A DNA stretch of 47,016 bases from an uncultured Candidatus Saccharibacteria bacterium (GCA_964536985.1 CAZIBG010000001.1:1-47016), one strand, 5' to 3'; numbered from the stretch's first letter, positions 26 through 17,706 are shown. Numbers and translations: made by a program. Notes: generated from the letters alone by a model not told the origin.

Positions 26-54
26 ATTCTACCCCCCCCTGAGATACAATGCAA
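26..54 (-). promoter_or_regulatory. Sigma70-like promoter with a G8 spacer tract; the gene it drives lies left of the window
   Basis: Coding strand reads TTGCAT (54..49), then tgtatctca + G8 (48..32, a 17-nt spacer), then TAGAAT (31..26). The flanks are near-identical to the sites at 9004..9034 and 15734..15763. Confidence 0.6.
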
Positions 55-64
55 GAAAGTAGCC

Positions 65-298
65 TTATAGTTCACCACTGAGTATTCGCGAGACATCGAT
101 GTAGCGTTGGCAGTCATCAATACTACGATCAGCTAGGGGAATGGCGAGGATACGCTCAAAGTCAATCTTTGCTACAGCCAAGTCTTCGTCATAAGTTACA
201 GCTAATTCCGAGGCCAATACTTTAGACCCAAGTGAAGAAGGAAAATATAATCCATGTTCGGCGGCTATCAGTTCATAGTCTGGTATTCTGTCTGTCAT
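65..298 (-). CDS. Small acidic protein of unknown function (77 aa), member of a 3-copy family
   Basis: ORF track. It is near-identical to 15774..16007 and clearly homologous to 13158..13409, sharing YFP..LG...TY.EDL...SRILSG[DE]L. Conservation between diverged copies supports a real gene. Confidence 0.7.
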   Translation of the reverse strand: MTDRIPDYELIAAEHGLYFPSSLGSKVLASELAVTYDEDLAVAKIDFERILAIPLADRSIDDCQRYIDVSRILSGEL

Positions 299-415
299 CT
301 GTTAACCATACCATGTAGAGCGATATTCTCTAGTTTCCTACTGCCGTGACATCCACCCGAAAGTCATAAGTTTTACTGGCTTTATGCATTGGTTTTCCTA
401 GAACGAGCCATGAAC

Positions 416-1924
416 CTACTTTAGTGCAGACCTCTTACGTAGTGCGTAGACAATAAAACAAAGACCCAAAGAAGTGGCAATAATCGTGATAGCTGGAGAT
501 ACAGCGCCAATACCAGTGTTCGGAGCTCCGGCATTACCGCTACCAGGCGTAGAAGGAGTAGAGGCGCCACAGACAGCTCCCTCAAATTGGAAGGCACCGA
601 CTGAAGGGCAAGAGTTAGGCCGAGCGATACCACGAGCGTCAGTTGTTACCCCAAGTACTGAAGCACCAGCAGCAATTGCAGGGCTTCCAGGAAGCAAGGC
701 ACGGGTCGGCACACTTCCACTGTTGTTCTGAAGTGGACCGAGAGTAGGAATGATATTGCTGATATTTTGTTGGTCACCTTCTTCGATAAACATGTCACAC
801 GTATCATCGTCTGACATGTTGAATCCGTTCGAAGTGATACCAAAACTAACATCCGTACCTGAGCCACCTACAGCGTTTGTAAGGTCAACAGCAGTACAGT
901 TGGAAGAAACTCCATTATTCAGGTTATCGGCCATGAGGCTATTGCTGACCGAAACATTTACATCTGCATGCCCGCTTGGCTGATCAACAGCTGCGGCCGC
1001 GTAGAAGGCTGCCGACCTGATATCTGCTGCGAAGCCAGTTCCTGTTACTCCTCTCATGCCGGTGACGGTGATGTTATTTACCGAGGTATTCACCGAAGTA
1101 CTTGCACCATCAACTCCAACGGAAAAACTTCCAAATGGTGCAACAAAGTCTTCGCCAGTTATGTCATCCACTGTTACGTTGGAAATTGTTGCAGTAACCT
1201 CGCTATCTCCGATGGCCAAGATTTGAACTCCATATGTAAAGTTTTGGGCACCAGTATTATGGATGTCTGCAATAGTTATATTATTAAGATTGGCCTCTAC
1301 AGCAATATCTCCACCCTCGGCATTTACTGCAATAACTCGAACGAATCCCGCAGCAGTCATGTTGTGAACGTAGATATTCTCCATCAATACTGATGTTGCA
1401 ACTTGTGTACTGGGATCAGCCACGATACCGTCCAGAGCATTACTGTCTTGGCCATCGACTTCAATATTGCGTAACGTAGCGTTGACGTTCTTCATACGAA
1501 GAGCTTTGCTATTGAAGGCAGTAATTTTGAGATCCTGGACACTTACATTGACGATAGGATCATCGTAAGGAACTACCGCCCAAATAGTCGTGTAACTTCC
1601 GTTGTCGCCACTAATTGTCGTCTGATCCATACCAGCACCAGATATTGAAACGGATTTTGTAATCTCTGGCAGGTCAGCTGAAAGTGTTATAGTGCCAGCC
1701 GGAAGAGTGATGGTATCGTTCGTGCCATAGCTGCCACTTGCAGTACAATCCGATTGATTTGCACCGGCATTAACCGAGTCAATAGCAATAGGTAGCGTAC
1801 AGCCACCGGTCACGTTGAGAGTTGCCGCGTGAGCCCGTCCACCACCCAAAGTCAGGGCAGCCAGGAAGGCGAATGCTGCCAGGATCAGTTTGTTTGTTTT
1901 CGTGAGGTTCAGGATATTGAGCAT
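416..1924 (-). CDS. Sortase-anchored surface protein with a parallel beta-helix core and a choice-of-anchor-Q-like C-terminal module (family member, 502 aa)
   Basis: N-terminal signal peptide MLNILNLTKTNKLILAAFAFLAALTLGGGRAHA/ATLNV. The core has N.T/NxT-rich PbH1-like repeats. The C-terminal module reads LGPLQNNSGSVPTRALLPGSPAIAAG...TTDARGIARP. The sorting signal is GAPNTG followed by a hydrophobic stretch and RKRSALK. Confidence 0.85.
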   Translation of the reverse strand: MLNILNLTKTNKLILAAFAFLAALTLGGGRAHAATLNVTGGCTLPIAIDSVNAGANQSDCTASGSYGTNDTITLPAGTITLSADLPEITKSVSISGAGMDQTTISGDNGSYTTIWAVVPYDDPIVNVSVQDLKITAFNSKALRMKNVNATLRNIEVDGQDSNALDGIVADPSTQVATSVLMENIYVHNMTAAGFVRVIAVNAEGGDIAVEANLNNITIADIHNTGAQNFTYGVQILAIGDSEVTATISNVTVDDITGEDFVAPFGSFSVGVDGASTSVNTSVNNITVTGMRGVTGTGFAADIRSAAFYAAAAVDQPSGHADVNVSVSNSLMADNLNNGVSSNCTAVDLTNAVGGSGTDVSFGITSNGFNMSDDDTCDMFIEEGDQQNISNIIPTLGPLQNNSGSVPTRALLPGSPAIAAGASVLGVTTDARGIARPNSCPSVGAFQFEGAVCGASTPSTPGSGNAGAPNTGIGAVSPAITIIATSLGLCFIVYALRKRSALK

Positions 1925-1960
1925 TAGTTAGTTCCTATTATACGTTTGTGCTTATCCTTT

Positions 1961-1991
1961 AGTCTACCCCCCCCCCGAGGATATTGGGCAA
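1961..1991 (-). promoter_or_regulatory. Sigma70-like promoter with a G10 spacer tract, upstream of 416..1924
   Basis: Coding strand reads TTGCCC (1991..1986), then aatatcctc + G10 (a 19-nt spacer), then TAGACT (1966..1961). An AGGAAC Shine-Dalgarno-like motif lies just upstream of the ATG at 1924. Confidence 0.6.
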
Positions 1992-2096
1992 GTCTAGGCT
2001 CAACTAAACACCCGACTGCAAATGACTACACATAGAAACATATAACCTCATCAACTACGCCCCGACAGGGGTGATTATGATATAATAGTGTCTGTA

Positions 2097-2486
2097 ATGG
2101 TGAAGAGATCTAAGTACAATATTGTCATTCCTGTCGGCATGAAGCCTCGACCCAAGCTTCATGAAGAAACGGCTGCCGAGATATTAGCCGCTCACTTAAA
2201 GAGCGATGTCTACTTTATTGAAACTGGCAGCCAGGGAACGCCTGACGTATCTATTAAAGGCACGAAATGGGAGATCAAGAGTCCTATTGGTAGTGGCGCT
2301 AACAATATACAGAAAAATATGCGTGAAGCATCCGCGCAGTCGGAAAGTATAGTTATAGATTTAAGGCGGTCAAAACTGCATCAAACACGAGCACTAGGCT
2401 ATATTAGATTATTCAGTAACAGATACAAGAAACTAAAGCGAGTTTTGGTCATAACTAAATCCAAGCAAATATTGACAATCAAGTAG
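2097..2486 (+). CDS. Hypothetical protein with a PD-(D/E)xK nuclease-like motif; probably translated from a leaderless mRNA
   Basis: The ORF track starts at GTG 2088, but a perfect extended -10 (TGATATAAT, 2078..2086) sits 1 nt before that GTG. ATG 2097 is therefore the more likely start, about 4 nt from the predicted TSS. The motif is TPDVSIKGTKWEIKSP (PD...ExK). This is one of only three + strand ORFs called inside the minus-strand array (with the IS30 transposase and, less certainly, the candidate sRNA). Confidence 0.6.
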   Translation: MVKRSKYNIVIPVGMKPRPKLHEETAAEILAAHLKSDVYFIETGSQGTPDVSIKGTKWEIKSPIGSGANNIQKNMREASAQSESIVIDLRRSKLHQTRALGYIRLFSNRYKKLKRVLVITKSKQILTIK

Positions 2487-2509
2487 TCGACAGCTATAAT
2501 TACAGATGC

Positions 2510-2557
2510 AAAAGACGCATACGGGACTGAATTGACCCAGAGGCGTCTTTTCTTTTT
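2510..2557. terminator. Possible bidirectional terminator between convergent genes
   Basis: aaaagacgc (2510..2518) pairs with gcgtctttt (2543..2551) and is followed by a T-rich tail. The 24-nt loop is long, which weakens the call. Confidence 0.35.
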
Positions 2558-4040
2558 AGTTGCGCTTAGTGGCAAAACTATAGCTAAGGGCGATAAGCCC
2601 AAAGAGGCTAGTAACGGTAGTGACGATAATTGAAGCTGAGCCAATACCAGTGCTTGGTGCAGTAGCTGTAGCTGGGCTCGTTGTAGTTTCGGCTAGAACA
2701 TACTGGTATGCACCAATGGATGGACTTGAGCTTGGCCGGGCGATACCTCGAGCATCTGTAGTTACGCCAAGTACTGAACCACCGGCTGAGATGGCTGGCG
2801 AACCAGGGAGAAGCGCTCGGGTCGGCACAGAGCCACCATTGTTTTGTAGGGGTCCAAGCGTAGAAACGATGTTACCTATGTTCTGTTGGTCGTGTGGCTG
2901 ATTGAAGTTTGTGCAAGAAGCGTCGTCGGACATGTTGTAGTCCAAAGATGTGACCGTGGCATTTCCCGTACCCGTTCCACTGAAGCCTGCGGTTAGATCA
3001 GCAACTTCACAATTAGATGACACGCCGTTACTAAGGTTGTCGGCCAGTAAACTGTTACCGACACTAATGTCCACATTAGCCGTGTCGCCACTAGTCAATC
3101 CTGCGGTAATTGCGTAAAATGCTGCCGACTTCACACCCACAAGTGGAAATGCATTACCAGTAATTCCTCGCATCCCTGTGATAGTAACGTTATATATGGT
3201 CATGTTTGTATTTGCGTCACCTCCAGCGGCAAGCGCACCTCCAGCGAATGGCGCCACTATATTAGCACCTGTTATGTTGTGAATGGTTGTATTAGTAATC
3301 GTAGCGTTTACCGCACCTATATTGCCTGGTGTATTGCCTTGCATACCCACGCCCATGGCGAATCCGTTGATAGTGCCCGTTCCGTTATTTATATTGGCGA
3401 GAGTCGTATTATTAATGTTGGCATTTAATGTACCACCACCGTTTTGGTTAACAAGCACACCATACACAATGGTTTCGTCATAATCTATATCGTGAATATA
3501 TACATTGTTTGTGGACAATGTAAAAGTGTTAGGCGAGTCGTTCATAATCATTAAGTTTGACCATTGGTTTGTTGAATTCTGGCCGTTAATTTCTAGATTC
3601 TCTAAGGTAACATTACAGTTCTCTGCAAGTAGTGCGTACTGATCATAAGCCTGAACCGTCATGTCTGAGATAGTAACATCTACCCCTTGCGCTCTGAATG
3701 GTCGATATTGGCCGGCATCGCCGTCTATAGCAGTACTACTGATACCTGCGCCCTTGATTACCACATCTTCTGTGATATTGGCTGGAGTTGCTGTCAGAGT
3801 AATAGTTCCTGCAGGGATGGCAATAATGTCGCTTGTGCCGTAGCCAGCTTCTGTGGCCGTACAACCAGATTGGTCAGCTCCTGCGTTTACTGAATCGATT
3901 GCGATATTTAACGTACAGCCACCACCTACATTAAGTGTCGCCGCATGCACCCTGCCACCGCCAAAGGCTAGCACTGCTAAAAAGGCGAATGTCGCAAGGA
4001 TGAGTTTGTTTGTTTTTGTCAGATTCAGAATGCTTTCCAT
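2556..4040 (-). CDS. Sortase-anchored surface protein with a beta-helix core and a choice-of-anchor-Q-like module (family member, 494 aa)
   Basis: Signal peptide MESILNLTKTNKLILATFAFLAVLAFGGGRVHA/ATLNV. The C-terminal module reads LGPLQNNGGSVPTRALLPGSPAISAG...TTDARGIARP. The sorting signal is APSTG followed by a hydrophobic stretch and KRN. Confidence 0.85.
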   Translation of the reverse strand: MESILNLTKTNKLILATFAFLAVLAFGGGRVHAATLNVGGGCTLNIAIDSVNAGADQSGCTATEAGYGTSDIIAIPAGTITLTATPANITEDVVIKGAGISSTAIDGDAGQYRPFRAQGVDVTISDMTVQAYDQYALLAENCNVTLENLEINGQNSTNQWSNLMIMNDSPNTFTLSTNNVYIHDIDYDETIVYGVLVNQNGGGTLNANINNTTLANINNGTGTINGFAMGVGMQGNTPGNIGAVNATITNTTIHNITGANIVAPFAGGALAAGGDANTNMTIYNVTITGMRGITGNAFPLVGVKSAAFYAITAGLTSGDTANVDISVGNSLLADNLSNGVSSNCEVADLTAGFSGTGTGNATVTSLDYNMSDDASCTNFNQPHDQQNIGNIVSTLGPLQNNGGSVPTRALLPGSPAISAGGSVLGVTTDARGIARPSSSPSIGAYQYVLAETTTSPATATAPSTGIGSASIIVTTVTSLFGLIALSYSFATKRN

Positions 4041-4075
4041 TTATAATTCCTACTTTACGCTAGTGTTTAACCGGT

Positions 4076-4104
4076 AGTCTACCTCCCCCGTAAGTTATTT
4101 GCAA
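4076..4104 (-). promoter_or_regulatory. Sigma70-like promoter with an interrupted G tract (GGGGGAGG), 17-nt spacer
   Basis: Coding strand reads TTGCAA (4104..4099), then ataacttac + GGGGGAGG (17 nt), then TAGACT (4081..4076). The + strand reads cctccccc. Confidence 0.6.
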
Positions 4105-4144
4105 GAACACCTGCTTGAACCACTCGTATGTATTACCCTTACGG

Positions 4145-4257
4145 TTGACGATAGTGGCACATTTGAGGTAAAATGTAACTACAATTGATTCGCTTTCCGA
4201 ACTGTCACCGTATGGTGCGCGTGCCTGGGACAACCAGGATAGGAAGCGAATTTTTTA
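4145..4257 (+). ncRNA. Candidate small RNA unit: promoter, about 64-nt branched hairpin, then a T tract
   Basis: The promoter is TTGACG (4145..4150), an 18-nt spacer, then TAAAAT (4169..4174). The outer stem pairs attcgctttcc (4188..4198) with ggaagcgaat (4242..4251). Inner hairpins are cacc-gtat-ggtg (4206..4217) and cctgg-gacaa-ccagg (4224..4238). TTTTTTATTT (4251..4260) follows. No ORF is present. Confidence 0.3.
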
Positions 4258-4878
4258 TTTGAAGTACCAAATATCTTCAGTGCGCTTGTTGATAACTTTT
4301 AGGTAGATATCGCTGTCAGTTTTACGCTTTTGAGTTGTTCGTAAAAGGCTACCCGCAACCATATCTGCCAGCTGAATCAAGTTATCATTCTTGGAGTTAA
4401 CAAACTTCATATCTTTTATTATGCTACCGTCTGGATTAGCCTGCTGGCGAAAGTACGTTATTGCCGCTTTCTTGTAAGACCGGTCTTCGTGGCCATCAAG
4501 ACGAATCCGTCCATCGGTAATCTTGCCAGCACTTTTGGAAAGCACCTCTTTGATCATGTAGTTATAGAATTTATTCTTGTTTCTCCTAAGTTCAACGCTT
4601 CTGATGATAGACTTATCGGCGACTATTGCCCGAACCCGGAACTTACAACTTTTTATCTCGTTTAAAAAAGCGAGACGTATATCTTTACTGGCTTTGTTGA
4701 ACTTAAACTCATGATCGTCTCGCCACCCAAGTGAACGACGCAATCGCTTAATCCTAAGCGCAGTTTCTTCGGCATCAAGGTTGTCATCAAAGACAATGCA
4801 GGCAATAACAAAGTGTGTGCTCGAGCCCTTATCAAACTTAAAGCCCGGATCTCCTGAATCATCTATGAATACCAGCAT
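4255..4878 (-). CDS. DUF3800 family protein
   Basis: The N-terminus MLVFIDDSGDPGFKF and the overall length (207 aa) are typical of DUF3800. This is recognised from memory and was not searched. Confidence 0.75.
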   Translation of the reverse strand: MLVFIDDSGDPGFKFDKGSSTHFVIACIVFDDNLDAEETALRIKRLRRSLGWRDDHEFKFNKASKDIRLAFLNEIKSCKFRVRAIVADKSIIRSVELRRNKNKFYNYMIKEVLSKSAGKITDGRIRLDGHEDRSYKKAAITYFRQQANPDGSIIKDMKFVNSKNDNLIQLADMVAGSLLRTTQKRKTDSDIYLKVINKRTEDIWYFK

Positions 4879-4928: not shown

Positions 4929-6686
4929 CTAGGCTCGCTTGTGAGTACAGACATAACCGAGAGTTAATAGCCCGGCAAAAGAAGCGAACAACGAACCAAC
5001 GAGAGAGACAGGGTTAGCGCCGGTGTTTGGTGCCCCTGCATTACCGCTACCAGACGTAGAAGGAGTAGAGGCGCCACAGACAGCTCCCTCAAACTGGAAG
5101 GCTCCAACAGATGGGCAATCCCCAGGCCGAGCAACTCCACGAGCGTCAGTAGTAACACCTAGGACAGAGCCACCAGAGGCAATAGCAGGAGATCCATTAA
5201 GCAATGCGATAGTCTCTACTGGACCGCCGTTGTTCTGGAGTGGACCAAGGGTGGAAAGTATGTTCGAAACAACAGTATAGCCGGTACAGTGTGGGTCATC
5301 GGTTATGTTATTACCAAGATTTACTGGCGCGAGATCAATGGCACCCGACAGTCCAAAAGCCGCCTTATCTCCTTGAATACAGCTACCAGTTACGCCATTA
5401 CGTGTGTTTCCGGCAATGAGGCTGTTTTGAGCACTTGCTCCGTTGGTGATGTCAGGTACAAAAGGCGCGACTTTATCAACAAAGAATGTTGCGTTAACTC
5501 CGGCCGAAACGAATGCCTGGTAAAACGCACCGGGGTCACTTTGGGTCACTTCGTTCCCAACAATTGTTGCATTGGTAAAAGTTAAATCAGCACTATCTGC
5601 AGTTAAGCTAGCTACAAATCCCGCACCCGTCAGCTGATCGTCTAACTCATTCACAATTATGTTGTTTGCCGACGTAAGGTTAGTGATATTCTGGTTGTTT
5701 GCAAGAGCTCCATTAAAAATCATCCCCGAAACATATGGATGAGATTGGAATGGATCTGCCAGTGGCACTGCTGTTGCGACCTCAACGGCATTTCCTGATA
5801 CGGTCACAGCGTCCATTGTAAATACAGTTCCAACTTCAGAAACAGTACCGCCTTCTTCGTAAATCATAACGCCACCCCACTTTTCGGCTATGTTATCGGC
5901 TATTGTCGTGCGTTCAACATTTACTTCGATACTATCTACATTATCACCACTCACTTGGTAATAGGTACTTATATACAAGCCTGCTGACTCAGATGAGTTG
6001 CCGCTTATTACGCTATCCTGAATGTCTGCAGATGGGATATCAGATAACTGCACTGGCGTAGGTATAATTGAAAGGCCAGCAAAATCGGTACCGAAGTCTC
6101 CAGTGATAAGCCCGCCGAAGATATTATTATTAATGTTATCTGTAATTTTCGAGTCTTTAACAATTGTATGAATAGCGCGCACGTACACACCCATTACCGA
6201 ATTGGACACCTCTACGCCATCGATTGTTACAGTGCCAGAAAACTGAGCACCGATGGCCATTGGAATTGCGTCAAAAATAGTAAAGTCCTTGAACACATGG
6301 TCACGCGCTCCCGATGGTCCTGGGTCAGGGTCTGTATTAAAGCCACCATGACCGTTGGCATCTATATTCGTAACACCCTTGCCAGCGCCAATAATGCTAA
6401 CCGATTTGTTGGTTATAGCCGGTAAATCTGCAGACAGGGTAATGGTTCCTGCGGGAATAGTGATCGTGTCATTTGTGCCATATGAATCAGGAGATATCAC
6501 TGCCGTACACCCAGACTGGTTAGCACCCGCATTAACCGAATTAATAGCGATAGGTAGGGTACAGCCTCCGGTCACGTTAAGGGTGGCCGCATGAGCACGA
6601 CCAGAACCAAATGCAAAAACAGCCAGAAAGGCAAAGGTTGCAAGAATTAATTTTGTTGTATTTGTTAGATTCAGAATGCTTTGCAT
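4929..6686 (-). CDS. Sortase-anchored surface protein with a beta-helix core and a choice-of-anchor-Q-like module (family member, 585 aa, longest core)
   Basis: Signal peptide MQSILNLTNTTKLILATFAFLAVFAFGSGRAHA/ATLNV. The C-terminal module reads LGPLQNNGGPVETIALLNGSPAIASG...TTDARGVARP. The sorting signal is GAPNTG followed by a hydrophobic stretch and HKRA. Confidence 0.85.
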   Translation of the reverse strand: MQSILNLTNTTKLILATFAFLAVFAFGSGRAHAATLNVTGGCTLPIAINSVNAGANQSGCTAVISPDSYGTNDTITIPAGTITLSADLPAITNKSVSIIGAGKGVTNIDANGHGGFNTDPDPGPSGARDHVFKDFTIFDAIPMAIGAQFSGTVTIDGVEVSNSVMGVYVRAIHTIVKDSKITDNINNNIFGGLITGDFGTDFAGLSIIPTPVQLSDIPSADIQDSVISGNSSESAGLYISTYYQVSGDNVDSIEVNVERTTIADNIAEKWGGVMIYEEGGTVSEVGTVFTMDAVTVSGNAVEVATAVPLADPFQSHPYVSGMIFNGALANNQNITNLTSANNIIVNELDDQLTGAGFVASLTADSADLTFTNATIVGNEVTQSDPGAFYQAFVSAGVNATFFVDKVAPFVPDITNGASAQNSLIAGNTRNGVTGSCIQGDKAAFGLSGAIDLAPVNLGNNITDDPHCTGYTVVSNILSTLGPLQNNGGPVETIALLNGSPAIASGGSVLGVTTDARGVARPGDCPSVGAFQFEGAVCGASTPSTSGSGNAGAPNTGANPVSLVGSLFASFAGLLTLGYVCTHKRA

Positions 6687-6723: not shown

Positions 6724-6752
6724 AGTCTACCCCCCCCCGATATTTTGAGCAA
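6724..6752 (-). promoter_or_regulatory. Sigma70-like promoter with a G9 spacer tract, upstream of 4929..6686
   Basis: Coding strand reads TTGCTC (6752..6747), then aaaatatc + G9 (17 nt), then TAGACT (6729..6724). The -35 lies only 12 nt after the sortase stop codon. Confidence 0.6.
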
Positions 6753-6763: not shown

Positions 6764-7447
6764 CTAGAAGGCTTCTGCGACAACGATCACCCGAGAGTCA
6801 TAGGTTTTGCTATCTTTATCAAATCGACCAGTGCACGTTATGAGGTTAAGTTGCTTAGGTATGGTTTTGTCGCGCACAAACAGCGCGGTGTCGGCCTCTT
6901 TAGTGGAAACTGTTTGGACTTGTTTGACTTTGAACTTTCTAACGCTTTTATCGCCGTAAGTTACCGTGAATGTATCACTAGTCTTGAGCTTACCCAGGTT
7001 GTAGAAGATTCCTTTAGCATATAGCCCATGCACATGCCCGTCGATAATACTGAGGCCAGCATCACCAGGCAAGGAGCCCTTGGTGTACCAGCCAGCCATA
7101 TTAACATTACTCGGGACTACCATCTGGTTTTCTTTGTCTACGCTTACTTGTTGGATAAAACCTTCTGCCTTAATCGTTGGCAGCTGAATGGAGAGTGGTT
7201 TGTCTGCGGGGACGCTATAGTTATCTGGCACTGGTTGTTCGCTGGGGGTGTCAGTAGATACCGTCGCCACCGTATGTCCAGCCGGTACACCGGCATGTTG
7301 AATGTTATACCAGTTACGTACCGCATTCAGGCCAATGCCAACCAGTAATATGCCTACAATTAATATTACGAGGCGAATACTTCGTTGAGTCTTCGAGGTT
7401 GATCTACGCTTTAATGATCTATTGCTACGCTTCTTTAGTCGAACCAT
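6764..7447 (-). CDS. Sortase (class F-like transpeptidase), copy 1
   Basis: N-terminal TM anchor, catalytic His in IIDGHVHG, Cys in LNLITCTG and Arg in YDSRVIVVA. It is about 90% identical to 13508..14194. Confidence 0.85.
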   Translation of the reverse strand: MVRLKKRSNRSLKRRSTSKTQRSIRLVILIVGILLVGIGLNAVRNWYNIQHAGVPAGHTVATVSTDTPSEQPVPDNYSVPADKPLSIQLPTIKAEGFIQQVSVDKENQMVVPSNVNMAGWYTKGSLPGDAGLSIIDGHVHGLYAKGIFYNLGKLKTSDTFTVTYGDKSVRKFKVKQVQTVSTKEADTALFVRDKTIPKQLNLITCTGRFDKDSKTYDSRVIVVAEAF

Positions 7448-7500
7448 AGTTACTAATATAGACTAGCTCGAGCGTTGTTGCTTGCGGAATACGTATGTTA
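6764..7500. repeat. Duplicated module: sortase gene plus the 3' end of the upstream surface gene (partner about 13508..14250)
   Basis: A perfectly identical run of about 125 nt (roughly 6843..6967 versus 13588..13712) is flanked by further near-identical stretches. Boundaries are approximate. Confidence 0.7.
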
Positions 7501-9003: not shown

Positions 9004-9034
9004 ATTCTACCCCCCCCCCTGAGTTACAATGCAA
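9004..9034 (-). promoter_or_regulatory. Sigma70-like promoter with a G10 spacer tract, upstream of 7463..8965; IS30 abuts the -35
   Basis: Coding strand reads TTGCAT (9034..9029), then tgtaactca + G10 (19 nt), then TAGAAT (9009..9004). Confidence 0.6.
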
Positions 9035-10393
9035 GCCTTGAGTTCAACCCAACGATGCAACACAAGCGGAATAAGCGAGGTGTAATGTGGAAGATTTGGG
9101 TACTGCTCATAGAGGGCGCAGCCGGCAGGCTGCGCGTAAACGGAGAGACCGGTATTTCCAGCTAGTAGTTGGGGGTATGTCCTCCACTGAGGCTTGCCGG
9201 GTGGTTGGCGTCAGTAAACGAACCGGTAAGGTATGGAGAAATGGCAGGAGTCGCCTGTCTGGCAGGAATGAGCTGCCATGTCTACCATATCTACATATGG
9301 AACAAGGGAACAGAAAAACAGGACGACATAATTACGTACGCAAACTCAATGGCTTCTTTCTGTCACTGGAAGAACGAATACGAATAGCTGACCTGCTGGT
9401 ACAGGGCAGCTCCGTGCGGGGCATTGCGAGGGAGATTGGGTATGACCCGGCTACCGTGAGCCGCGAGATACGGAGACACCAAGACAAGTCGGGCGCGTAC
9501 AACCCCTTTCTGGCGCACCAAAAGTCAGTACAGAAACTAGCTCGACCAAAACTACGAAAAATACAAGGTAATACCCTGCTCGGGCAGTATGTACAAGCAC
9601 GCCTGGATCTTCACTGGTCTCCAGAGCAGATTAGTCGTAGCCTGGTGAAAGATTTTCCGTATACTAAAACAATGCGACTCAGTCACGAAAGTATCTACCA
9701 GGCGATCTATGTACAGGGGCGAGGTACCCTACGAAGGGAACTTAAGCAGGTGCTCAGGACCGGACGTGCCCAACGGAAGCCCCACAAAGATCCGAACAAA
9801 CGTCGGCAACGCTACCGAGACCCCATGGTCAATATTAGCGAACGTCCTGCAGAGGTAGCCGACAGAGCCATACCGGGACACTGGGAGGGAGACCTCATTG
9901 TGGGTAGTCACAATGCCTCGGCAATCGGTACATTAGTAGAAAGAACCTCACGGTTCTGTCTACTGCTCTACCTACCAGGCAACCACACCGCCGAGACCGT
10001 ACGAGATGCTATTGTGGCCCAGATGCAGTCGCTACCGCGTACATTACGTAAGTCTTTGACATGGGACCAGGGAGTAGAGCTCGCACTCCACAAAAAGATA
10101 TCTCAAAAACTAGACATGGCAGTATTCTTTTGTGATCCACACTCACCATGGCAGCGTGGAACAAACGAAAATACCAATGGATTACTACGCCAGTACTTTC
10201 CCAAAGGAACAGATCTGTCGGTACACCCGCCAGAGAAACTAAAACGAGTGGCACAAGAATTGAACGAACGTCCACGGAAGACTCTCGACTGGCTAACACC
10301 AGCCGAGAAACTCAATGAGATATTACAAGCTCAGTGATATTATATGGATACTATTTGATTAATGTTTATGTTGCTTTGATTGGTTGAATCCGC
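9035..10393 (+). mobile_element. IS30-family insertion sequence (about 1.36 kb)
   Basis: It carries a single IS30-type transposase ORF. Imperfect terminal inverted repeats occur at about 9040..9061 (gagttcaacccaacgatgcaac) and 10370..10391 (reverse complement ggattcaaccaatcaaagcaac, 16/22). A candidate 3-bp target duplication CAA lies at 9032..9034 and 10394..10396. The paralogous site 13098..13116 (gtgcaatagggtaatggtt) looks like an empty-site version. Confidence 0.75.
9087..10337 (+). CDS. IS30 family transposase
   Basis: Two N-terminal HTH regions are followed by DDE hallmarks: GHWEGDLI, TWDQGVELA and PWQRGTNENTNGLLRQYFPKG. The start codon is GTG. Confidence 0.9.
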   Translation: MEDLGTAHRGRSRQAARKRRDRYFQLVVGGMSSTEACRVVGVSKRTGKVWRNGRSRLSGRNELPCLPYLHMEQGNRKTGRHNYVRKLNGFFLSLEERIRIADLLVQGSSVRGIAREIGYDPATVSREIRRHQDKSGAYNPFLAHQKSVQKLARPKLRKIQGNTLLGQYVQARLDLHWSPEQISRSLVKDFPYTKTMRLSHESIYQAIYVQGRGTLRRELKQVLRTGRAQRKPHKDPNKRRQRYRDPMVNISERPAEVADRAIPGHWEGDLIVGSHNASAIGTLVERTSRFCLLLYLPGNHTAETVRDAIVAQMQSLPRTLRKSLTWDQGVELALHKKISQKLDMAVFFCDPHSPWQRGTNENTNGLLRQYFPKGTDLSVHPPEKLKRVAQELNERPRKTLDWLTPAEKLNEILQAQ

Positions 10394-10407: not shown

Positions 10408-13029
10408 TTAAGACTTTACACGAATGCGCTTCAATAAGCTCAGACTTAATATGACCAGCATTGAACTGCCGACGATAATATACCGAGTGTTCTGACCGGT
10501 GTCTGCCAATGAACCACCACTATGAGATTGTGGATTGCTGCCATTATCAATATTCGGATTTGAAGTATCTGTAGTTGCACCAAGAACTAAGCCCTTGAGC
10601 AATCTATCACCAAATATATCGTTAACCCACATATTACCTTCTGTATCAACTACTAGACTACCGCTATAGTAACCTAAGAAATTTTTATTAATTTCATCAG
10701 TTTGTGCGTCATCTCCGAATAATCCATAAGGAATAGGGGTAATTAATCGGTATGTGTTCATTTGATCGGAAGTATTGATTGTGACAATATCACCATTAAA
10801 TAGAAGAGCATGGAAAGTACCATCCCCTGCTAAGTGGATAGAGACAACATTACTACTTTGTCCTTCGGGCAAGGCGAACAAGGTTGCCTGACCACTAGCA
10901 TTGACCTTAACTATATTAAAATTATCATCATTAATACCGCCACTTACAAGCCAGGTATTGCCTAATACATCCATACTGATTGTTCTGCCTTCTGCGATTG
11001 CTGATATCGATGAATTGTCTTCTGGAATAAAATACTCTTCAATGGCCCCAGCTTGGTTCACTATCGCTAGGCTAGAAGTATTTTCGATAGGCTTTGCAAT
11101 CGATAATATTATTTGACCATTTGGATCTGTTGCCATTGACCCGACTAAATGATCCCCTTCTAAATCTATCGTACTAGAATCCCCGAGTGCTGAAATAATA
11201 TGTATACTTGATACTCCGAAACCAACAATATAGACAGAACCGCTAGAGGATAGGGCTAGATTAACAAGACCGTCAGTACAGATATTTTCTATTGGGTATA
11301 GATTTGTAACTTCAGTTTCGTAGAAATAATTTACAACTGTGTCATTTTCGCAATCCACATACCAAATACTATTATTGGACGCAATCGCCAAATTGCTATT
11401 ATTAGTGAGGATACTCGGAGGATTATCTTCTGGAACAGGGTAATATGTTGCCTGATCGGAAGAAGGGTTAAATTTCACAAACCGAGCTGGGGACCCGCTG
11501 CCATCAAAGAAGCCGCTTAGATCCAATCCCCAGAGATTTCCGGTAGAGTCCATGGTACGTAAACTGCCTGGGCTTGTTTGAGAGCTTAAGATAATATTAG
11601 GCTCAACAATCTCAACAGTTATGGGATCACTAGTACTTACATTGCCCTCGAAGTCAAAAGCTTTAGCCGTAAGGGTATGCTGACCTGCTGAGGTAGTCCA
11701 GCCATCCACTCCATAACGATTGATCCAGTTTATATCAAATGGACTTCTATTACTCGTATCTATTAGGGTTTCGTCAATATAGTAATCAACCTTAGTGACT
11801 TCTGTATTATCAGTGGCAGCTACGGATATGCTAAGGCTATTAGCTGTACTGTTGTTAGACGGGCTAGTAATACTGATACTCGGGCTGATAGTATCAGTAG
11901 CGACGTAGTCGGACGCATACAGCTTTGAATCTGCTGTTCCAACATAAAGTTTATTGGTAGCTTGGTCTACGGTTATCGAAGAAGTTGTGGATGGGAGGCC
12001 GGATATAGTCTGCCAACTAGTTAGATTTTTGGTCCGAAGAATTATTTTCTCGCTGGACGAGTTATTACAAAGCACATTAAGAAATTCACCAGATGACTCC
12101 ATGTCTAAGATGTAGTCACAGCCATAATTGTCATAGAGGTCTGTCACTTCTTCGTCGTTATAGTTATCTCCATCATAAGATTGCAATCTGTTGCCATCAC
12201 TACAGATTATTTTACCATCAAAAACCATAGGGTTGGGACCTCTAGCACTAGTGCCATTAGTACAGATATTCTCAGATGTACCGGTTGACCACGAAGCACC
12301 ATCATAAATCTGAGTATCAGCACCTTGGCCGTATACGTCTGCCTGCATATACATTTTACCGTCTAAGGCTTTACCCCAATAATATCGTTCAGAGTCATCT
12401 CCACTACCCGGGTTACGATTATTAGTTTGGGCTACTGACCAATTATCTCCCCCGTCTGTGCTGCGCCAGGCATAGGCTGTTTCGGTACTACCTCCAAACA
12501 TCCATAAATCAGTGCCATTGAGTGATTCAATATCAAATACATGCTCAGCATTGAAGGGTGTATGAATGCTCCAATTACTGGCATTATCACCGACAGCATA
12601 ACCACTTGGACAGCTTCCAGAACAGGTAGCATCGATTGTGGTCGTATAAAGCTTATTGTTAATAACCTTCCAATTACCAAGCGATTCGGATGGAACCGAT
12701 AAAACTGAACCATCGAAAGTACCACTGCTTAGATCAAAAGGGTTAATATCTATAGGCCCAGTGTTGGCTTGATAGTCTCCATACGCAGCAAATAGTTTGC
12801 TGTTAAATACTTGCAGATTATTAATAGTCTTACCAGTATCGGTAGTTTGAGCTGCCGCCTGAGGATGAGTTCCTAGAAGCGTAAAGCTCAAAGACACAGC
12901 CGCTTGGACTTTTAAAGTATTAATTAACTGAGATGAGACTAAGCTGGTCAGCAGTACCAATGAGATAAGTAAAAGCTGACAACGTTTTAAATTTTTTTTA
13001 ACATAGTTGTCTTTTTTAATTAAAAACAT
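10408..13029 (-). CDS. Large sortase-anchored surface protein (873 aa) with beta-propeller/BNR-like regions and an Ig-like domain; architecture differs from the beta-helix family
   Basis: It has a signal peptide, an Asp-box-like motif STDGGDNW and an Ig-like stretch (ISITSPSNN...VDYYIDE...HTLTAKAFDFEGN). The C-terminal half is repeat-rich. The sorting signal is LADTG followed by a hydrophobic stretch and KRIRVKS. Confidence 0.8.
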   Translation of the reverse strand: MFLIKKDNYVKKNLKRCQLLLISLVLLTSLVSSQLINTLKVQAAVSLSFTLLGTHPQAAAQTTDTGKTINNLQVFNSKLFAAYGDYQANTGPIDINPFDLSSGTFDGSVLSVPSESLGNWKVINNKLYTTTIDATCSGSCPSGYAVGDNASNWSIHTPFNAEHVFDIESLNGTDLWMFGGSTETAYAWRSTDGGDNWSVAQTNNRNPGSGDDSERYYWGKALDGKMYMQADVYGQGADTQIYDGASWSTGTSENICTNGTSARGPNPMVFDGKIICSDGNRLQSYDGDNYNDEEVTDLYDNYGCDYILDMESSGEFLNVLCNNSSSEKIILRTKNLTSWQTISGLPSTTSSITVDQATNKLYVGTADSKLYASDYVATDTISPSISITSPSNNSTANSLSISVAATDNTEVTKVDYYIDETLIDTSNRSPFDINWINRYGVDGWTTSAGQHTLTAKAFDFEGNVSTSDPITVEIVEPNIILSSQTSPGSLRTMDSTGNLWGLDLSGFFDGSGSPARFVKFNPSSDQATYYPVPEDNPPSILTNNSNLAIASNNSIWYVDCENDTVVNYFYETEVTNLYPIENICTDGLVNLALSSSGSVYIVGFGVSSIHIISALGDSSTIDLEGDHLVGSMATDPNGQIILSIAKPIENTSSLAIVNQAGAIEEYFIPEDNSSISAIAEGRTISMDVLGNTWLVSGGINDDNFNIVKVNASGQATLFALPEGQSSNVVSIHLAGDGTFHALLFNGDIVTINTSDQMNTYRLITPIPYGLFGDDAQTDEINKNFLGYYSGSLVVDTEGNMWVNDIFGDRLLKGLVLGATTDTSNPNIDNGSNPQSHSGGSLADTGQNTRYIIVGSSMLVILSLSLLKRIRVKS

Positions 13030-13073
13030 AGATTGATTACAACTCCCTAAGTTTAAGCAATAGCGTTACTGTT

Positions 13074-13103
13074 ATTCTACCCCCCCCCGGAGGGTTAGTG
13101 CAA
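13074..13103 (-). promoter_or_regulatory. Sigma70-like promoter with a G9 spacer tract, upstream of the 873-aa gene
   Basis: Coding strand reads TTGCAC (13103..13098), then taaccctcc + G9 (18 nt), then TAGAAT (13079..13074). Confidence 0.6.
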
Positions 13104-13507: not shown

Positions 13508-14194
13508 TTACAATACTGCCTCAGCTACAATAATCACCCGAGAGTCATAGGTTTTGCTATCTTTATCAAATCGACCAGTGCACGTTATGAGGTTAAGTTG
13601 CTTAGGTATGGTTTTGTCGCGCACAAACAGCGCGGTGTCGGCCTCTTTAGTGGAAACTGTTTGGACTTGTTTGACTTTGAACTTTCTAACGCTTTTATCG
13701 CCGTAGGTTACCGTAAACGTATCGTCAGACTTAAGCTTACCCAAGTTGAAGAATATTCCTTTAGCATAGAGCCCATGGACATGTCCGTCGATGATACTGA
13801 GACCCGCGTCACCAGGTAAAGAGCCCGTGGTGTACCAGCCAGCCATATGGACGTTGCTTGGTACTACCATCTGGTTATCTTTATCAATGCCTACCTGTTG
13901 GATGAAGCCTTCTGTCTTAATCGTTGGTAGCTGAATAGAGAGTGGTTTGTCTGCGGGGACATTGTAGTTATCTGGTACTGGCTGCTCGCTGGGGGTGTCG
14001 GTAGATGCCGTCGACACCGTATGTCCAGCCGGTACACCGGCATGTTGAATGTTGTACCAGTTTCGTATTGCGTTCAGTCCGACACTAACAAGTACAAGGC
14101 CTACAACAAATAGTACGAGACGAACCTTTCGTTGAGTCTTCGAGGCTGGCCTTCGCTTTGATGAATTACTTCTACGCTTCTTTAATAGAGCCAT
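13508..14194 (-). CDS. Sortase (class F-like transpeptidase), copy 2
   Basis: It has the same His/Cys/Arg motifs as copy 1 (IIDGHVHG, LITCTG, YDSRVIIVA) and an N-terminal TM anchor. Confidence 0.85.
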   Translation of the reverse strand: MALLKKRRSNSSKRRPASKTQRKVRLVLFVVGLVLVSVGLNAIRNWYNIQHAGVPAGHTVSTASTDTPSEQPVPDNYNVPADKPLSIQLPTIKTEGFIQQVGIDKDNQMVVPSNVHMAGWYTTGSLPGDAGLSIIDGHVHGLYAKGIFFNLGKLKSDDTFTVTYGDKSVRKFKVKQVQTVSTKEADTALFVRDKTIPKQLNLITCTGRFDKDSKTYDSRVIIVAEAVL

Positions 14195-14209
14195 AGGTAC
14201 TAATATAGA

Positions 14210-15697
14210 CTAGCTCGTGCGTTGTTGCTTGCGGAATACGTATGTCAGCAATCCAAGTCCAAGTAAACCGACTAATACGTTTAGTATTTGTGTTGTAGAA
14301 CCTATACCGGTATTTGGAGCACCAGCGTTACCACCAGATGTAGACGGAGTGGACGCACCACAGACGGCACCTTCAAATTGGTAGGCACCGACAGATGGAC
14401 AGCTGTCAGGTCGAGCAATACCGCGGGCGTCGGTAGTTACACCAAGCACCGCGCTACCAGCAGCGATGGCTGGCGAACCGGCAAGCAACGCGCGAGTTGG
14501 GACATTGCCACCGTTATTCTGAAGAGGCCCAAGGGTGGAGATAATATTAGATACATTTTGCTGGTCACCGGTTTGGGTAAATGAAGTACAAGAGGCATCA
14601 TCAGAGATGTTGTTGCCAAGTGACGTAATCGTTGGCGTGCCCGTCCCGGAACCACCGGCATTGGGTGTTATATCAATAGTCGAACAGTTGGAAGAATCTG
14701 AACCCGATAGGTTGTCGGCAAATAAGCTGTTACTGACATTGATCGTGACAGATGCAGTATCACCACTAGTTTGCCCAAATGCAGCTGAGTAAAAGGCTGC
14801 TGATTTAGCCCCCGCAACCGGAAACAGGGTGCTCGTAATGCCACGAGTTCCAGTAATTGTCGCATTACTCACCGTCATATTAACCGCCGCATCACTTCCA
14901 GAAGCTATACTTAAGCCGACAAAAGCAGCTGCTACGCTCGTAGCTTTTATGTTATGGATTGTAGTATTAGAGATTGTCGTATTTATAATGCCCATGCCTT
15001 GAACTTGTGTTGCAAAACCAAAAGCGTCCCCACCTGATACAGAAGTATTTTGAATATTTGTTAGGGTGGTATTGTTTACGTTTACCGTAAGTGTCGCCCC
15101 ACCAGTTTCCTGAATATTAAATGCTGTAAGAGCAGTACTACTGTGGGTTATGTCGTGCATATATAGGTTATTTGTTGTTACGCTTTTGTCATCACCCGAA
15201 GTACTGATAATCACTATTGCCGTATCACCACCTGCGTTGGAGCCATCTACTTCGATATTCTGCAAAGTCACATCACAATCTTGTAGACCGATTGCTACAT
15301 TTGCGTATGAAGCAATTTTCATGTCCTGAATCGTAATAGCTACTCCAACAGCTTGTATCCCATCGTAGGCTCCGCTACTGCCATCTATGGCTGTAGTGTT
15401 CATGCCAGCGCCATGTATAGTTACGTCTTCCGTTATTTGAGGTAGATTAGTGTTAAGCGTAATAGTTCCAGCTGGGATGCTAATGGTGTCGCTCGAACCG
15501 TAACTACCACTTGCTGTACAACCGCTCTGGTTAGCTCCTGCGTTAACCGAGTCGATAGCAATAGGCAGCGTACAACCACCACTTACATTCAGTGTTGCCG
15601 CATGCGCCCGACCAGAACCAAAAGCCAAGACTGCCACGAAGGCAAAAGCTGCCAGGATGAGTTTATTTGTTTTAGTTAAATTCAGAATACTGAGCAT
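14210..15697 (-). CDS. Sortase-anchored surface protein with a beta-helix core and a choice-of-anchor-Q-like module (family member, 495 aa)
   Basis: The ORF track extends to 15829, but the family-conserved start MLSILNLTKTNKLILAAFAF is ATG 15697, preceded by an AGGAAA Shine-Dalgarno-like motif. The extra 44 codons read through the promoter, where the C tract is translated as GGG. The sorting signal is GAPNTG followed by a hydrophobic stretch and RKQQRTS. Confidence 0.85.
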   Translation of the reverse strand: MLSILNLTKTNKLILAAFAFVAVLAFGSGRAHAATLNVSGGCTLPIAIDSVNAGANQSGCTASGSYGSSDTISIPAGTITLNTNLPQITEDVTIHGAGMNTTAIDGSSGAYDGIQAVGVAITIQDMKIASYANVAIGLQDCDVTLQNIEVDGSNAGGDTAIVIISTSGDDKSVTTNNLYMHDITHSSTALTAFNIQETGGATLTVNVNNTTLTNIQNTSVSGGDAFGFATQVQGMGIINTTISNTTIHNIKATSVAAAFVGLSIASGSDAAVNMTVSNATITGTRGITSTLFPVAGAKSAAFYSAAFGQTSGDTASVTINVSNSLFADNLSGSDSSNCSTIDITPNAGGSGTGTPTITSLGNNISDDASCTSFTQTGDQQNVSNIISTLGPLQNNGGNVPTRALLAGSPAIAAGSAVLGVTTDARGIARPDSCPSVGAYQFEGAVCGASTPSTSGGNAGAPNTGIGSTTQILNVLVGLLGLGLLTYVFRKQQRTS

Positions 15698-15733
15698 GGT
15701 GAATTTCCTTATATAAGTTATAGCGTTACCGGT

Positions 15734-15763
15734 ATTGTACCCCCCCCCTGAGATACAATGCAA
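15734..15763 (-). promoter_or_regulatory. Sigma70-like promoter with a G9 spacer tract, upstream of 14210..15697
   Basis: Coding strand reads TTGCAT (15763..15758), then tgtatctca + G9 (18 nt), then TACAAT (15739..15734). Confidence 0.6.
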
Positions 15764-15773
15764 GGAACTAGAC

Positions 15774-16007
15774 TTATAGATCACCACTGAGTATTCGCGA
15801 GACATCGATGTAGCGTTGGCAGTCATCAATACTACGATCAGCTAGGGGAATGGCGAGGATACGCTCAAAGTCAATCTTTGCTACAGCCAAGTCTTCGTCA
15901 TAAGTTACAGCTAATTCTGAGGCCAATACTTTAGACCCGAGTGAAGACGGAAAATATAATCCACGCTCGGCGGCTATCAGTTCATAGTCTTGTATTCTGT
16001 CTGTCAT
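15774..16007 (-). CDS. Small acidic protein of unknown function (77 aa), near-identical copy of 65..298
   Basis: ORF track. Only a few substitutions separate it from the copy at 65..298. Confidence 0.7.
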   Translation of the reverse strand: MTDRIQDYELIAAERGLYFPSSLGSKVLASELAVTYDEDLAVAKIDFERILAIPLADRSIDDCQRYIDVSRILSGDL

Positions 16008-16124
16008 CTGTTAACCATACCATGTAGAGCGATATTCTCTAGTGTCCTTCTGCCGTGACATCCACCCGAAAGTCATAAGTTTTACTGGCTTTGTGCATCG
16101 GCTTCCTTCGAACGAACCACGAAC

Positions 16125-17639
16125 CTACTTTACTGCATTCCTCTTGCGTAGTGCGTAGGCAGTAATGCCAAGGCCCAGAGAAGTGGCAATAATCGTCATA
16201 GCTGGAGATACAGCGCCAATACCAGTGTTCGGAGCTCCGGCATTAGTTCCTGCGTTAGTCGTAGAGGCGCCACAGACAGCTCCTTCAAATTGGAAAGCGC
16301 CGACGGATGGGCAAGTACTTGGGCGAGCTACACCACGGGCATCAGTAGTTACACCTAGGACTGCGCCACCGGCTGAGATAGCTGGGCTGCCGGCCAGGAG
16401 TGCACGAGTCGGGACGACACCACCATTGTTTTGAAGGGGACCAAGTGTAGAGATAATATTGCTGACATTCTGCTGGTCACCTGGTTGATTAAAGCCCACA
16501 CAGCTGTCGTCATCTGAGATGTTATAACCGTTAGAAGTAATGACTTGCGTACCATCAGTACCACTACCCCCTATGGCGCTGGTTAGATCTGCGACCGTGC
16601 AGTTAGATGATACACCGTCGTTAAGGTTATCGGCCATCAGGCTATTGGTGACCGTTACAGTTGCATTTGCGCTATCACTCGGCTGATCAACAGCAGAAGC
16701 TGCATAAAAAGCCGCGGACTTAATCCCTGCAGCAGCAGCTGTTCCTAAAGCGCCTCTAAGTCCCGTGATAGTGATGCTTTTCACTGCAGTACTGACAGTG
16801 GCATCACCACCTACACCTGCTGCGAAACTACCGAAAGGTGCAGTAAAATCATCCCCCGTAAAGTCATGGATAGTCGTATTGGTTATGGTGGAATTTATTA
16901 CTCCTCCACCTAGTACCAAGACCTTGATGCCGTAAGTAAAATTGCCAGCGCCGGTATTATGAATATCTGCTATAGTAACATTTTTCAGGTTTACGTTCAT
17001 TGTCCCACCCGCACCGCCTTCGACCTCAATGGAAAGAACATCTAAGAATGATGTGGTATCAAATCCATGGATGTACAGGTTCTCCACATCCATACTTATT
17101 GTGTCTGTCGATCCACCGTTTAACGCCACACCTCTCTGGTCTGCGCCACCACCCGTACCATCAACTTCTATATTTTTTAATACGGTATTTACGTTTTTAG
17201 CTCGTATTGGACGGCCGTCAAACGCAGTGACCTTCAAATCTTGAATATTTACATCAATTAGTGGATCGGAGTCCCCGATTATTGCTTGTATACCCGTGTA
17301 GTTTCCGCTTCCACCGTTGATAATAGTCTGATCCATCCCCGCCCCCTTGATTGCGACAGATTCGGTGATGATTGGTAAATCCGCCGTCAAAGTCTGCGTC
17401 CCCGCCGGAATAGTAATAGTGTCATTGGTGCCGTATCCATTGGGAGATACTACTGCCGTACACCCAGACTGGTTAGCACCCGCATTAACCGAATTAATAG
17501 CGATTGGGAGGGTACAGCCTCCGGTCACGTTTAATGTAGCTGCATGTGCTCTTCCCGAACCAAAGGCCAGTACCGCCAAGAAAGCAAAAGTGGCCAGGAT
17601 GAGTTTGTGTGTTTTAGTTAGATCCAAAATACTGAGCAT
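16125..17639 (-). CDS. Sortase-anchored surface protein with a beta-helix core and a choice-of-anchor-Q-like module (family member, 504 aa)
   Basis: The ORF track extends to 17768. The conserved start MLSILDLTKTHKLILATFAF is ATG 17639, with an AGGAAA Shine-Dalgarno-like motif upstream. The sorting signal is GAPNTG followed by a hydrophobic stretch and RKRNAVK. Confidence 0.85.
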   Translation of the reverse strand: MLSILDLTKTHKLILATFAFLAVLAFGSGRAHAATLNVTGGCTLPIAINSVNAGANQSGCTAVVSPNGYGTNDTITIPAGTQTLTADLPIITESVAIKGAGMDQTIINGGSGNYTGIQAIIGDSDPLIDVNIQDLKVTAFDGRPIRAKNVNTVLKNIEVDGTGGGADQRGVALNGGSTDTISMDVENLYIHGFDTTSFLDVLSIEVEGGAGGTMNVNLKNVTIADIHNTGAGNFTYGIKVLVLGGGVINSTITNTTIHDFTGDDFTAPFGSFAAGVGGDATVSTAVKSITITGLRGALGTAAAAGIKSAAFYAASAVDQPSDSANATVTVTNSLMADNLNDGVSSNCTVADLTSAIGGSGTDGTQVITSNGYNISDDDSCVGFNQPGDQQNVSNIISTLGPLQNNGGVVPTRALLAGSPAISAGGAVLGVTTDARGVARPSTCPSVGAFQFEGAVCGASTTNAGTNAGAPNTGIGAVSPAMTIIATSLGLGITAYALRKRNAVK

Positions 17640-17675
17640 GGTGAGTTTCCTTATATAAGTTATAGCGTTACCGGT

Positions 17676-17706
17676 ATTGTACCCCCCCCCCGAACATAGT
17701 GTGCAA
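17676..17706 (-). promoter_or_regulatory. Sigma70-like promoter with a G10 spacer tract, upstream of 16125..17639
   Basis: Coding strand reads TTGCAC (17706..17701), then actatgttc + G10 (19 nt), then TACAAT (17681..17676). Confidence 0.6.

Follow-up and report, generated by a model that had tools for sequence, protein, structure and literature searches.

A candidate promoter-spacing phase-variation system in a surface-protein gene array of Candidatus Saccharibacteria

We analysed a stretch of DNA of 47,016 nucleotides (nt) from an uncultured Candidatus Saccharibacteria bacterium (GCA_964536985.1, CAZIBG010000001.1:1-47016; referred to as the window), in which an array of genes for secreted, sortase-substrate proteins is accompanied by eight copies of a promoter element whose -35/-10 spacer contains a run of G residues. 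The anatomy of this element, its conservation throughout the gene family and the lineage, and differences in tract length between otherwise identical sequences were directly observed. Judging from these sequence features, the element is likely to mediate phase variation, either on/off or graded, by slippage within the promoter spacer. The same interpretation had been proposed in an initial annotation of the window, and it is supported, albeit not proven, by comparison with related sequences, in which the tract was the sole variable site in two otherwise identical pairs.

In the proposed mechanism, each element would act as a sigma-70-type promoter, with TTGCnn as the -35 box, TA[G/C]A[A/C]T as the -10 box, and a 5' untranslated region (5'UTR) of approximately 30 nt that carries an AGGA ribosome-binding site (RBS), and an uninterrupted G run of 7-11 nt would form the -10-proximal part of the spacer. 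Slipped-strand mispairing at replication would add or remove G residues, and each gain or loss would change the distance between the two boxes, within the 15-20 nt spacers seen. Considering that the optimum of RNA polymerase is approximately 17 nt and that 16-18 nt are tolerated, each gene might switch independently among states of high, low, or no expression. Cells of one population would then differ in their sortase-anchored surface proteins, and the expression of two probably co-transcribed sortases would track that of the genes upstream of them. We infer the usage of the two boxes, the location of the transcription start site (TSS), the effect of tract length on transcription (from the known dependence of sigma-70 promoters on spacer length), and how fast and how reversibly switching occurs.

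Anatomy of the promoter element and the genes behind it

A search of the window for TTGC-N(18-21)-TASAMT recovered all eight elements, each 29-31 nt long and located on the minus strand, with the positions, tract lengths, and spacer lengths given in the initial annotation. They are TTGCAT-N9-G8-TAGAAT at 26-54 (spacer of 17 nt), TTGCCC-N9-G10-TAGACT at 1961-1991 (19 nt, serving the gene at 416-1924), TTGCAA-N9-GGGGGAGG-TAGACT at 4076-4104 (17 nt with an interrupted tract, serving 2556-4040), TTGCTC-N8-G9-TAGACT at 6724-6752 (17 nt, serving 4929-6686), TTGCAT-N9-G10-TAGAAT at 9004-9034 (19 nt, serving 7463-8965), TTGCAC-N9-G9-TAGAAT at 13074-13103 (18 nt, serving an unrelated 873-aa gene at 10408-13029), TTGCAT-N9-G9-TACAAT at 15734-15763 (18 nt, serving 14210-15697), and TTGCAC-N9-G10-TACAAT at 17676-17706 (19 nt, serving 16125-17639). 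In the minus-strand reading, the G run directly abuts TAGAAT, TAGACT, or TACAAT, and TTGCnn lies 8-9 nt 5' of the run. The end of the -10 hexamer is separated from the ATG by 36-44 nt, in agreement with the 35-45 nt reported before, and an AGGA/AAGGAA RBS is found 6-10 nt 5' of the ATG. When the eight upstream regions were aligned, similarity extended from TTGC through the -10 box, the approximately 30-nt leader, and the RBS to the ATG, and the start of the 5'UTR at site 26-54 was identical to that at 9004-9034. Upstream of TTGC, the eight copies are unrelated save for one recent duplication.

Such an arrangement is not expected by chance. The plus strand of the window contains seven C runs of at least 8 nt (at 32, 1967, 6730, 9010, 13080, 15740, and 17682), all of which fall inside the promoter elements, and no G run of at least 7 nt. 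A first-order Markov model gave 0.58 G/C runs of at least 8 nt per window (maximum of 3 in 300 simulations) versus the seven observed. The sequence GGGGGTASAMT was observed seven times versus 0.06 expected, and the whole promoter pattern 10 times versus 2.07 expected, a count that was reached in none of 100 shuffles.

Comparison of the copies with their relatives supports the assignment of TTGCnn and TAnAnT as putative -35 and -10 boxes, with the tract placed upstream of the transcription start. TTGC is the sole invariant block 5' of the tract across at least six differing subtypes (TTGCATTGTATCTCA, TTGCGCACTATATTC, TTGCTCAAAATATC, TTGCAAATAACTTAC, TTGCACTAACCCTCC, and TTGCCAAAAATTCC), and its distance is constant relative to the upstream flank and not to the -10 box, which itself retains T-12, A-11, and T-7. 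Family members from other lineages that lack the tract retain TACAAT, equally far from the ATG, with a TGn extended -10 motif in front of it; together with the invariant TTGC, these tract-less relatives argue for the box assignment. A tract-less TTGCAA-17-TACAAT element is also present elsewhere in the window. At the eight sites, a homopolymer of at least about 7 nt lies between recognisable -35 and -10 hexamers. Two other roles for the G run were considered and rejected. An element of the 5'UTR or an anti-Shine-Dalgarno sequence is incompatible with the conservation that starts at TTGC and with the -10 box retained in tract-less homologues, and a purine run is unable to pair with the purine-rich RBS. 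A G-quadruplex needs four G-tracts, for which a single run of 8-10 G is insufficient. A scan of the window against Rfam revealed no family over the promoter elements, the only matches being a DUF3800-IX RNA and a tRNA.

The genes under these promoters encode surface-type products. Six paralogues in the window (416-1924, 2556-4040, 4929-6686, 7463-8965, 14210-15697, and 16125-17639, all on the minus strand) have in common a signal peptide (MLSILNLTKTNKLILATFAFLAVLAFGSGRAHA/ATLNV), a choice-of-anchor Q domain, a C-terminal APNTG, a hydrophobic segment, and a basic tail, such that the termini read ...GRAHA/ATLNV and ...APNTG-hydrophobic-RKR. The first four products consist of 502, 494, 585, and 500 aa, respectively; in the 502-aa protein, the APNTG sorting signal is followed by a transmembrane segment and the basic tail. 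Matches to the NCBIfam choice-of-anchor Q model NF041518 reached 61.7 bits for 416-1924 and 63.0 bits for 4929-6686 (cut-off of 25). The genes at 14210-15697 and 16125-17639 start with ATG (MLSILNL... and MLSILDL..., respectively), and longer open reading frames (ORFs) with TTG starts at 15829 and 17768 were discarded as read-through artefacts, the real ATG starts being at approximately 15697 and 17639. The secreted 873-aa protein encoded at 10408-13029 (minus strand) contains a Big_7 domain and an LADTG sorting signal and gave no match to NF041518. The earlier description of the set as eight paralogues is slightly inaccurate: six in-window genes are related, the 873-aa gene is unrelated, and site 26-54 serves a gene outside the sequence, to the left of the window. 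With signal peptides, C-terminal xPNTG or LADTG motifs, hydrophobic segments, basic tails, and sortase genes adjacent to them, the controlled products are predicted to be sortase-anchored (LPXTG-type) cell-wall proteins.

Two sortase genes are interspersed in the array. The first (6764-7447, minus strand) has a Pfam sortase match with an E-value of 5.9e-19 in a scan of this gene, and its nearest NCBIfam model is class F, with a score of 114 bits that is below the 166-bit cut-off. The second (13508-14194, minus strand) was assigned to the family by its similarity to the first, the two being 92% identical over 300 nt. As they begin 15 nt past the stops of 7463-8965 and 14210-15697, respectively, and neither has a tract promoter of its own, both are probably co-transcribed with the tract-controlled surface-protein genes upstream. 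The supply of sortase may hence depend on the state of the promoters at 9004-9034 (G10) and 15734-15763 (G9). Exact-protein look-ups of the 7463-8965 product and the 6764-7447 sortase matched no record.

Tract length at related loci

In related genomes and metagenome-assembled genomes (MAGs), orthologous loci differ in the length of the tract while the flanks are conserved; this comparison had been proposed as a check in the initial annotation. The most informative cases are pairs of contigs that differ in nothing else. Two Logan contigs that encode the same 525-aa protein (L165 from SRR13287416 and L166 from SRR13287411) are identical over 5,660 aligned nt except for the tract, which is G8 in one and G10 in the other. 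Likewise, contigs L186 (SRR25018320) and L187 (ERR14057123) are identical over 2,974 nt except for G9 versus G10, and a contig from a third sample with the same protein (L185) shows no difference from L186 in 2,308 aligned nt, the G9 tract included. An orthologous locus with approximately 96% identity has G7 in L002 versus G9 in L087/L088. Identical flanks of 22 and 45 nt surround G7 in L010 versus G10 in L013, and G9 at 6730 of the window versus G8 in L167, L168, and L185. Beyond the two otherwise identical pairs, three pairs thus combine identical 67-nt flanks with unequal tract lengths, and across Saccharibacteria MAGs such flanks carry tracts from G7 to G10. The longest tract, G11, was detected in L018 within flanks nearly identical to the 13074-13103 module of the window, and the same contig has an interrupted copy (GGGCCGGG) of the promoter module. 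Orthologues of the interrupted site 4076-4104 contain an unbroken G7 (L002 and L011) or G9 (L087, L088, and L014, the last with a different upstream flank and a TATACT -10 box), and the promoter beside the Replic_Relax gene (17676-17706) has G7, G9, or G10 in different species-level MAGs with nearly identical flanks.

Among 34 distinct alleles with a pure tract, the spacer measured 15 nt in one, 16 nt in five, 17 nt in seven, 18 nt in 13, 19 nt in seven, and 20 nt in one. In our judgement, which is made without a control set of promoters, this spread looks broader than expected for ordinary sigma-70 promoters, and a range of 15-20 nt is what wandering tracts would produce. Interrupted tracts give spacers of 17 nt in the window (GGGGGAGG), in L018 (GGGCCGGG), and in L033 (GGGGAGGGGGA) and of 16 nt in L022 (GGGAGGGG). 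These four cases, a small sample on which we do not lean, hint that substitutions freeze a tract near the optimum, and the interrupted tract at 4076-4104 is probably stabilised.

All homologues and syntenic loci belong to MAGs of Candidatus Saccharibacteria/Saccharimonadota, several of which come from water-treatment datasets, judging by their names. Of 80 loci obtained in a metagenome protein scan, only approximately 10 are close relatives; the remaining loci encode distant choice-of-anchor Q proteins from other phyla and lack the element.

Proposed phase variation and competing explanations

Several points weigh against promoter-spacer slippage. The tract lengths are consensus-contig calls from metagenomes and not read-level measurements, coverage is possibly low, and differences of one base may be homopolymer miscalls. 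Six assemblies from one project show zero tract variation, implying that switching is too slow to flip the majority allele between those samples. In addition, the modal spacer is 18 nt and not 17 nt, and expression may be independent of tract length.

Some of these observations would suit an element in which the G run has a fixed function in the promoter, for example by supplying a G at -14 or contacting a regulator, and drifts neutrally in length with little effect on expression. The invariance among the six assemblies of one strain is consistent with this explanation, as is the clustering of tract lengths at 8-10 and of spacers mostly at 17-19 nt. However, neutral drift does not readily account for two stretches of DNA, 5.7 kb and 3.0 kb long, in which nothing varies except the tract, and spacers of 15-20 nt cover the range in which sigma-70 activity is established to change strongly (PMC7864442). 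Furthermore, relatives function without any tract and interrupted tracts are mostly found at 17 nt. We therefore consider a static role of the G run to be unlikely.

It is also conceivable, though rather improbable, that TTGC lies within an activator site and that the tract sets the distance between the activator and the -10 box, so that both a signal and a permissive length would be needed, as in the Bordetella fim promoters, which provide a precedent (PMC1891110). One candidate activator would be the adjacent pair of a PAS histidine kinase and a response regulator (20869-23462), a two-component system that flanks the array here and in syntenic genomes, and TTGCnn matches only four of the six positions of TTGACA. 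Nevertheless, nothing but TTGC is conserved 5' of the tract between promoter subtypes, the observed spacers of 16-19 nt fit direct recognition by sigma-70, and the candidate response regulator has no identified output domain.

That the length differences merely reflect sequencing or assembly errors in tracts that are really uniform is very unlikely. G runs of 8-10 are error-prone and metagenome coverage may be low, but when one strain was assembled from different samples and with different assemblers, the lengths were equal. For one such strain, six assemblies have the same length at the first G9 tract and five at the second, and the two of them that extend to the G7 and G8 tracts concur there as well, the G8 being also present in L087/L088. 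Two Logan assemblies of the strain of the window (L176 and L177, found through a look-up of the Replic_Relax protein) likewise have G10 at the site corresponding to 17682, three assemblies in all. Moreover, A7 and T8 runs in the aligned loci show no length difference, coding G7 runs are invariant in seven assemblies for one run and in three for another, G8 versus G10 is a difference of two bases, and paralogues within a single assembly differ systematically. Loci P0092, P0085, and P0031, which have no promoter tract, were used as controls only. Given the agreeing assemblies and the invariant A/T and coding G7 runs, random homopolymer error appears to be a poor explanation. Homopolymer miscalling, which the initial annotation had named as a possible source of the 8/9/10 differences, is thus improbable in general, but individual one-base differences might still arise from it.

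Contigs also start or end at or just past the tract (L168 at 1-19, L169 and L170 at position 1, and L176 and L177 at their 3' ends), which could be taken as a sign of assembly error. The breaks are equally explained by the repeat common to paralogous promoters: as the sequence past the tract is repeated between paralogues and such a repeat also breaks de Bruijn graphs, they are ambiguous, and for the same reason we set them aside as evidence of within-sample heterogeneity. One of the tract-edge contigs has G/C-rich junk before the tract. Evidently, short-read assemblies tend to break in this surface-protein family, and the breaks may conceal it from surveys based on MAGs.

Finally, we regard as highly improbable a recombination or inversion site of the neighbouring serine recombinase with the G run in its crossover site: a large serine recombinase does lie at the array edge, promoter halves look shuffled (site 26 combines the upstream flank of 15734 with the downstream flank of 9004), and contig L092 has a promoter followed by its own inverted copy, but the recombinase ORF enters a tRNA gene, as island integrases do, the eight elements are all oriented as their genes, inverted repeats of at least 40 nt are absent from positions 1-20700 of the window, and the orientation is the same in every assembly, the last two observations having also led us to reject an invertible promoter.

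Array surroundings and comparison with known systems

The edge of the array (17798-20644) comprises a Replic_Relax-like gene (17798-18571, minus strand), the large serine recombinase gene (18895-20610, plus strand; 571 aa), whose ORF extends 40 nt into a tRNA-Glu(CTC) gene, and this tRNA gene itself (20570-20644, minus strand). The order of Replic_Relax, recombinase, and tRNA also flanks the surface-protein arrays in L002, L167, and L176, as would be expected if the region were an integrated island that has been conserved. Beyond the edge, ordinary chromosomal genes follow, namely those for the PAS histidine kinase and response regulator, der, topA, murG, and a penicillin-binding protein. Scans of IMG/VR with two promoter patterns gave no match, and hence the array is not catalogued as viral.

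Several other features were observed within the window. A direct duplication of 300 nt with 97% identity (32-331 and 15741-16040) is located 5' of two promoters and contains a 77-aa ORF (65-298, minus strand) without a Pfam match. The junction at 26-54, which joins the upstream flank of 15734 to the leader of 9004, suggests that recombination may occur between paralogous promoters. An IS30-like transposase gene (HTH_38 and rve domains; 9087-10337, plus strand) was found approximately 50 nt 5' of the promoter at 9004-9034, between two surface-protein genes. The Rfam DUF3800-IX RNA motif (4187-4256, plus strand; 71 bits, E-value of 8e-14) abuts the stop of a DUF3800 gene (4255-4878, minus strand), and lies between this gene and the promoter at 4076-4104 on the strand opposite to the gene. 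The product of a minus-strand gene at 45474-46472 contains a domain similar to KwaB of the Kiwa anti-phage defence system (Pfam E-value of 1.4e-07, 32.1 bits, cut-off of 26.3).

Two further observations concern related contigs. At 2622-2730 of L188 (and in L189 and L190), a gene of the family is preceded by an ordinary TATAAT promoter that lacks a tract, and a run of G7 is located instead in the codons of the signal peptide (LGG/RAHA). The run breaks the frame, G6 or G9 would give a full-length protein of approximately 480 aa, and G7 is present in all three assemblies; the gene is possibly a translational phase switch or a pseudogene. In L092 (5860-5950 and 3925-3990), a promoter precedes an inverted repeat of itself, TTGCCAAAAATTCC-G10-TAC...GTA-C7-GGAATTTTTGGCAA, with arms of approximately 24 nt and approximately 39 nt between them. 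There is no gene downstream of this pair, and a third copy 5' of a family gene has G6. The pair could be a hairpin, an inversion relic, or an assembly chimera.

The genes behind the promoters are unevenly conserved. Between the window and the syntenic MAG contig L002, nucleotide identity is approximately 88% for the Replic_Relax gene, 93% for the promoter, and approximately 80% for the signal-peptide region, while the central passenger domain is only 35-55% identical and the C-terminus approximately 70-78% (16125-17639 of the window versus 10001-11500 of L002). A conserved switch, export signal, and anchor around a hypervariable middle would be typical of variable surface antigens or adhesins encoded by contingency loci. 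It is tempting to go one step further and propose, tentatively, that the poly-G promoter, 5'UTR, and signal peptide constitute a portable contingency cassette in an environmental clade of Saccharibacteria, which is placed on varied sortase-anchored passengers and amplified in tandem, so that each cell would display a random subset of hypervariable adhesins (along with the anchoring sortases) as bet-hedging by an obligate epibiont. If this were true, the bet-hedging may concern host attachment, host range, or escape from phages or host defence, and Patescibacteria would have their first reported example of a contingency-locus system.

Members of Patescibacteria, also known as the candidate phyla radiation (CPR), are mostly obligate epibionts, whose host attachment and host range depend on surface structures, and to our knowledge little has been established about how they vary their surface. 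If the proposed slippage is real, independent switching across the whole family would allow a small genome to vary its surface combinatorially, with up to 2^8 states in the window, and would explain the fragmentation of metagenome assemblies at surface-protein genes. Tract length per locus versus expression offers a directly testable handle.

The initial annotation had also held that such a system has not been described for CPR/Saccharibacteria, which is consistent with our searches of the full-text literature on Saccharibacteria, Patescibacteria, and CPR, where no report of such a phase-variation, homopolymer-tract, or slipped-strand system was found; a hypervariable repeat within a coding sequence of a Gracilibacterium (PMC6851277) came closest. 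What is new is the phylum, the choice-of-anchor Q family of sortase substrates, and the modular cassette of promoter, leader, and signal peptide on unrelated passengers. In Mycoplasma hyorhinis, a host-dependent bacterium with a small genome, the tandem vlp surface-protein genes each have a poly-A tract in their own promoter spacer and are expressed combinatorially. However, the vlp tracts are poly-A of approximately 17-20 nt in front of lipoprotein genes, whereas those in Saccharibacteria are poly-G of 7-11 nt in front of genes for sortase substrates.

In porA of Neisseria meningitidis and tp0126 of Treponema pallidum, a poly-G tract lies between the -35 and -10 boxes with an optimal spacing of 17 nt (PMC7864442). 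The likeness to our element is close, in that a G homopolymer of approximately 7-11 nt occupies the sigma-70 spacer of a surface-protein gene and its length sets the spacer (PMC7864442). Unlike these two cases, the putative system described here belongs to another phylum (environmental MAGs of Saccharibacteria/Patescibacteria), its products are predicted to be sortase-anchored rather than outer-membrane proteins, and one module serves all eight genes of a tandem array, one of which is an unrelated passenger. The tprE, tprG, tprJ, and tprL genes of T. pallidum are similar in that several paralogous surface genes each have their own promoter poly-G of 7-11 nt, which varies within and between strains (PMC7864442); however, the tprL tract overlaps the -10 region and leaves the -35/-10 spacing unchanged, whereas the Saccharibacteria tract lies wholly within the spacer. 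The fim2, fim3, and fimX genes of Bordetella pertussis are likewise paralogous genes for surface structures with a promoter C/G homopolymer, in which changes of one base alter transcript levels and of which related species have interrupted tracts (PMC1891110). The fim tract is longer, up to approximately 20 nt, and spaces the site of the activator BvgA from the -10 box, whereas the element described here has a -35-like TTGC and no known activator. The proposed mechanism is a classical one, and the advance over these systems lies in phylogenetic and ecological reach, not in principle.

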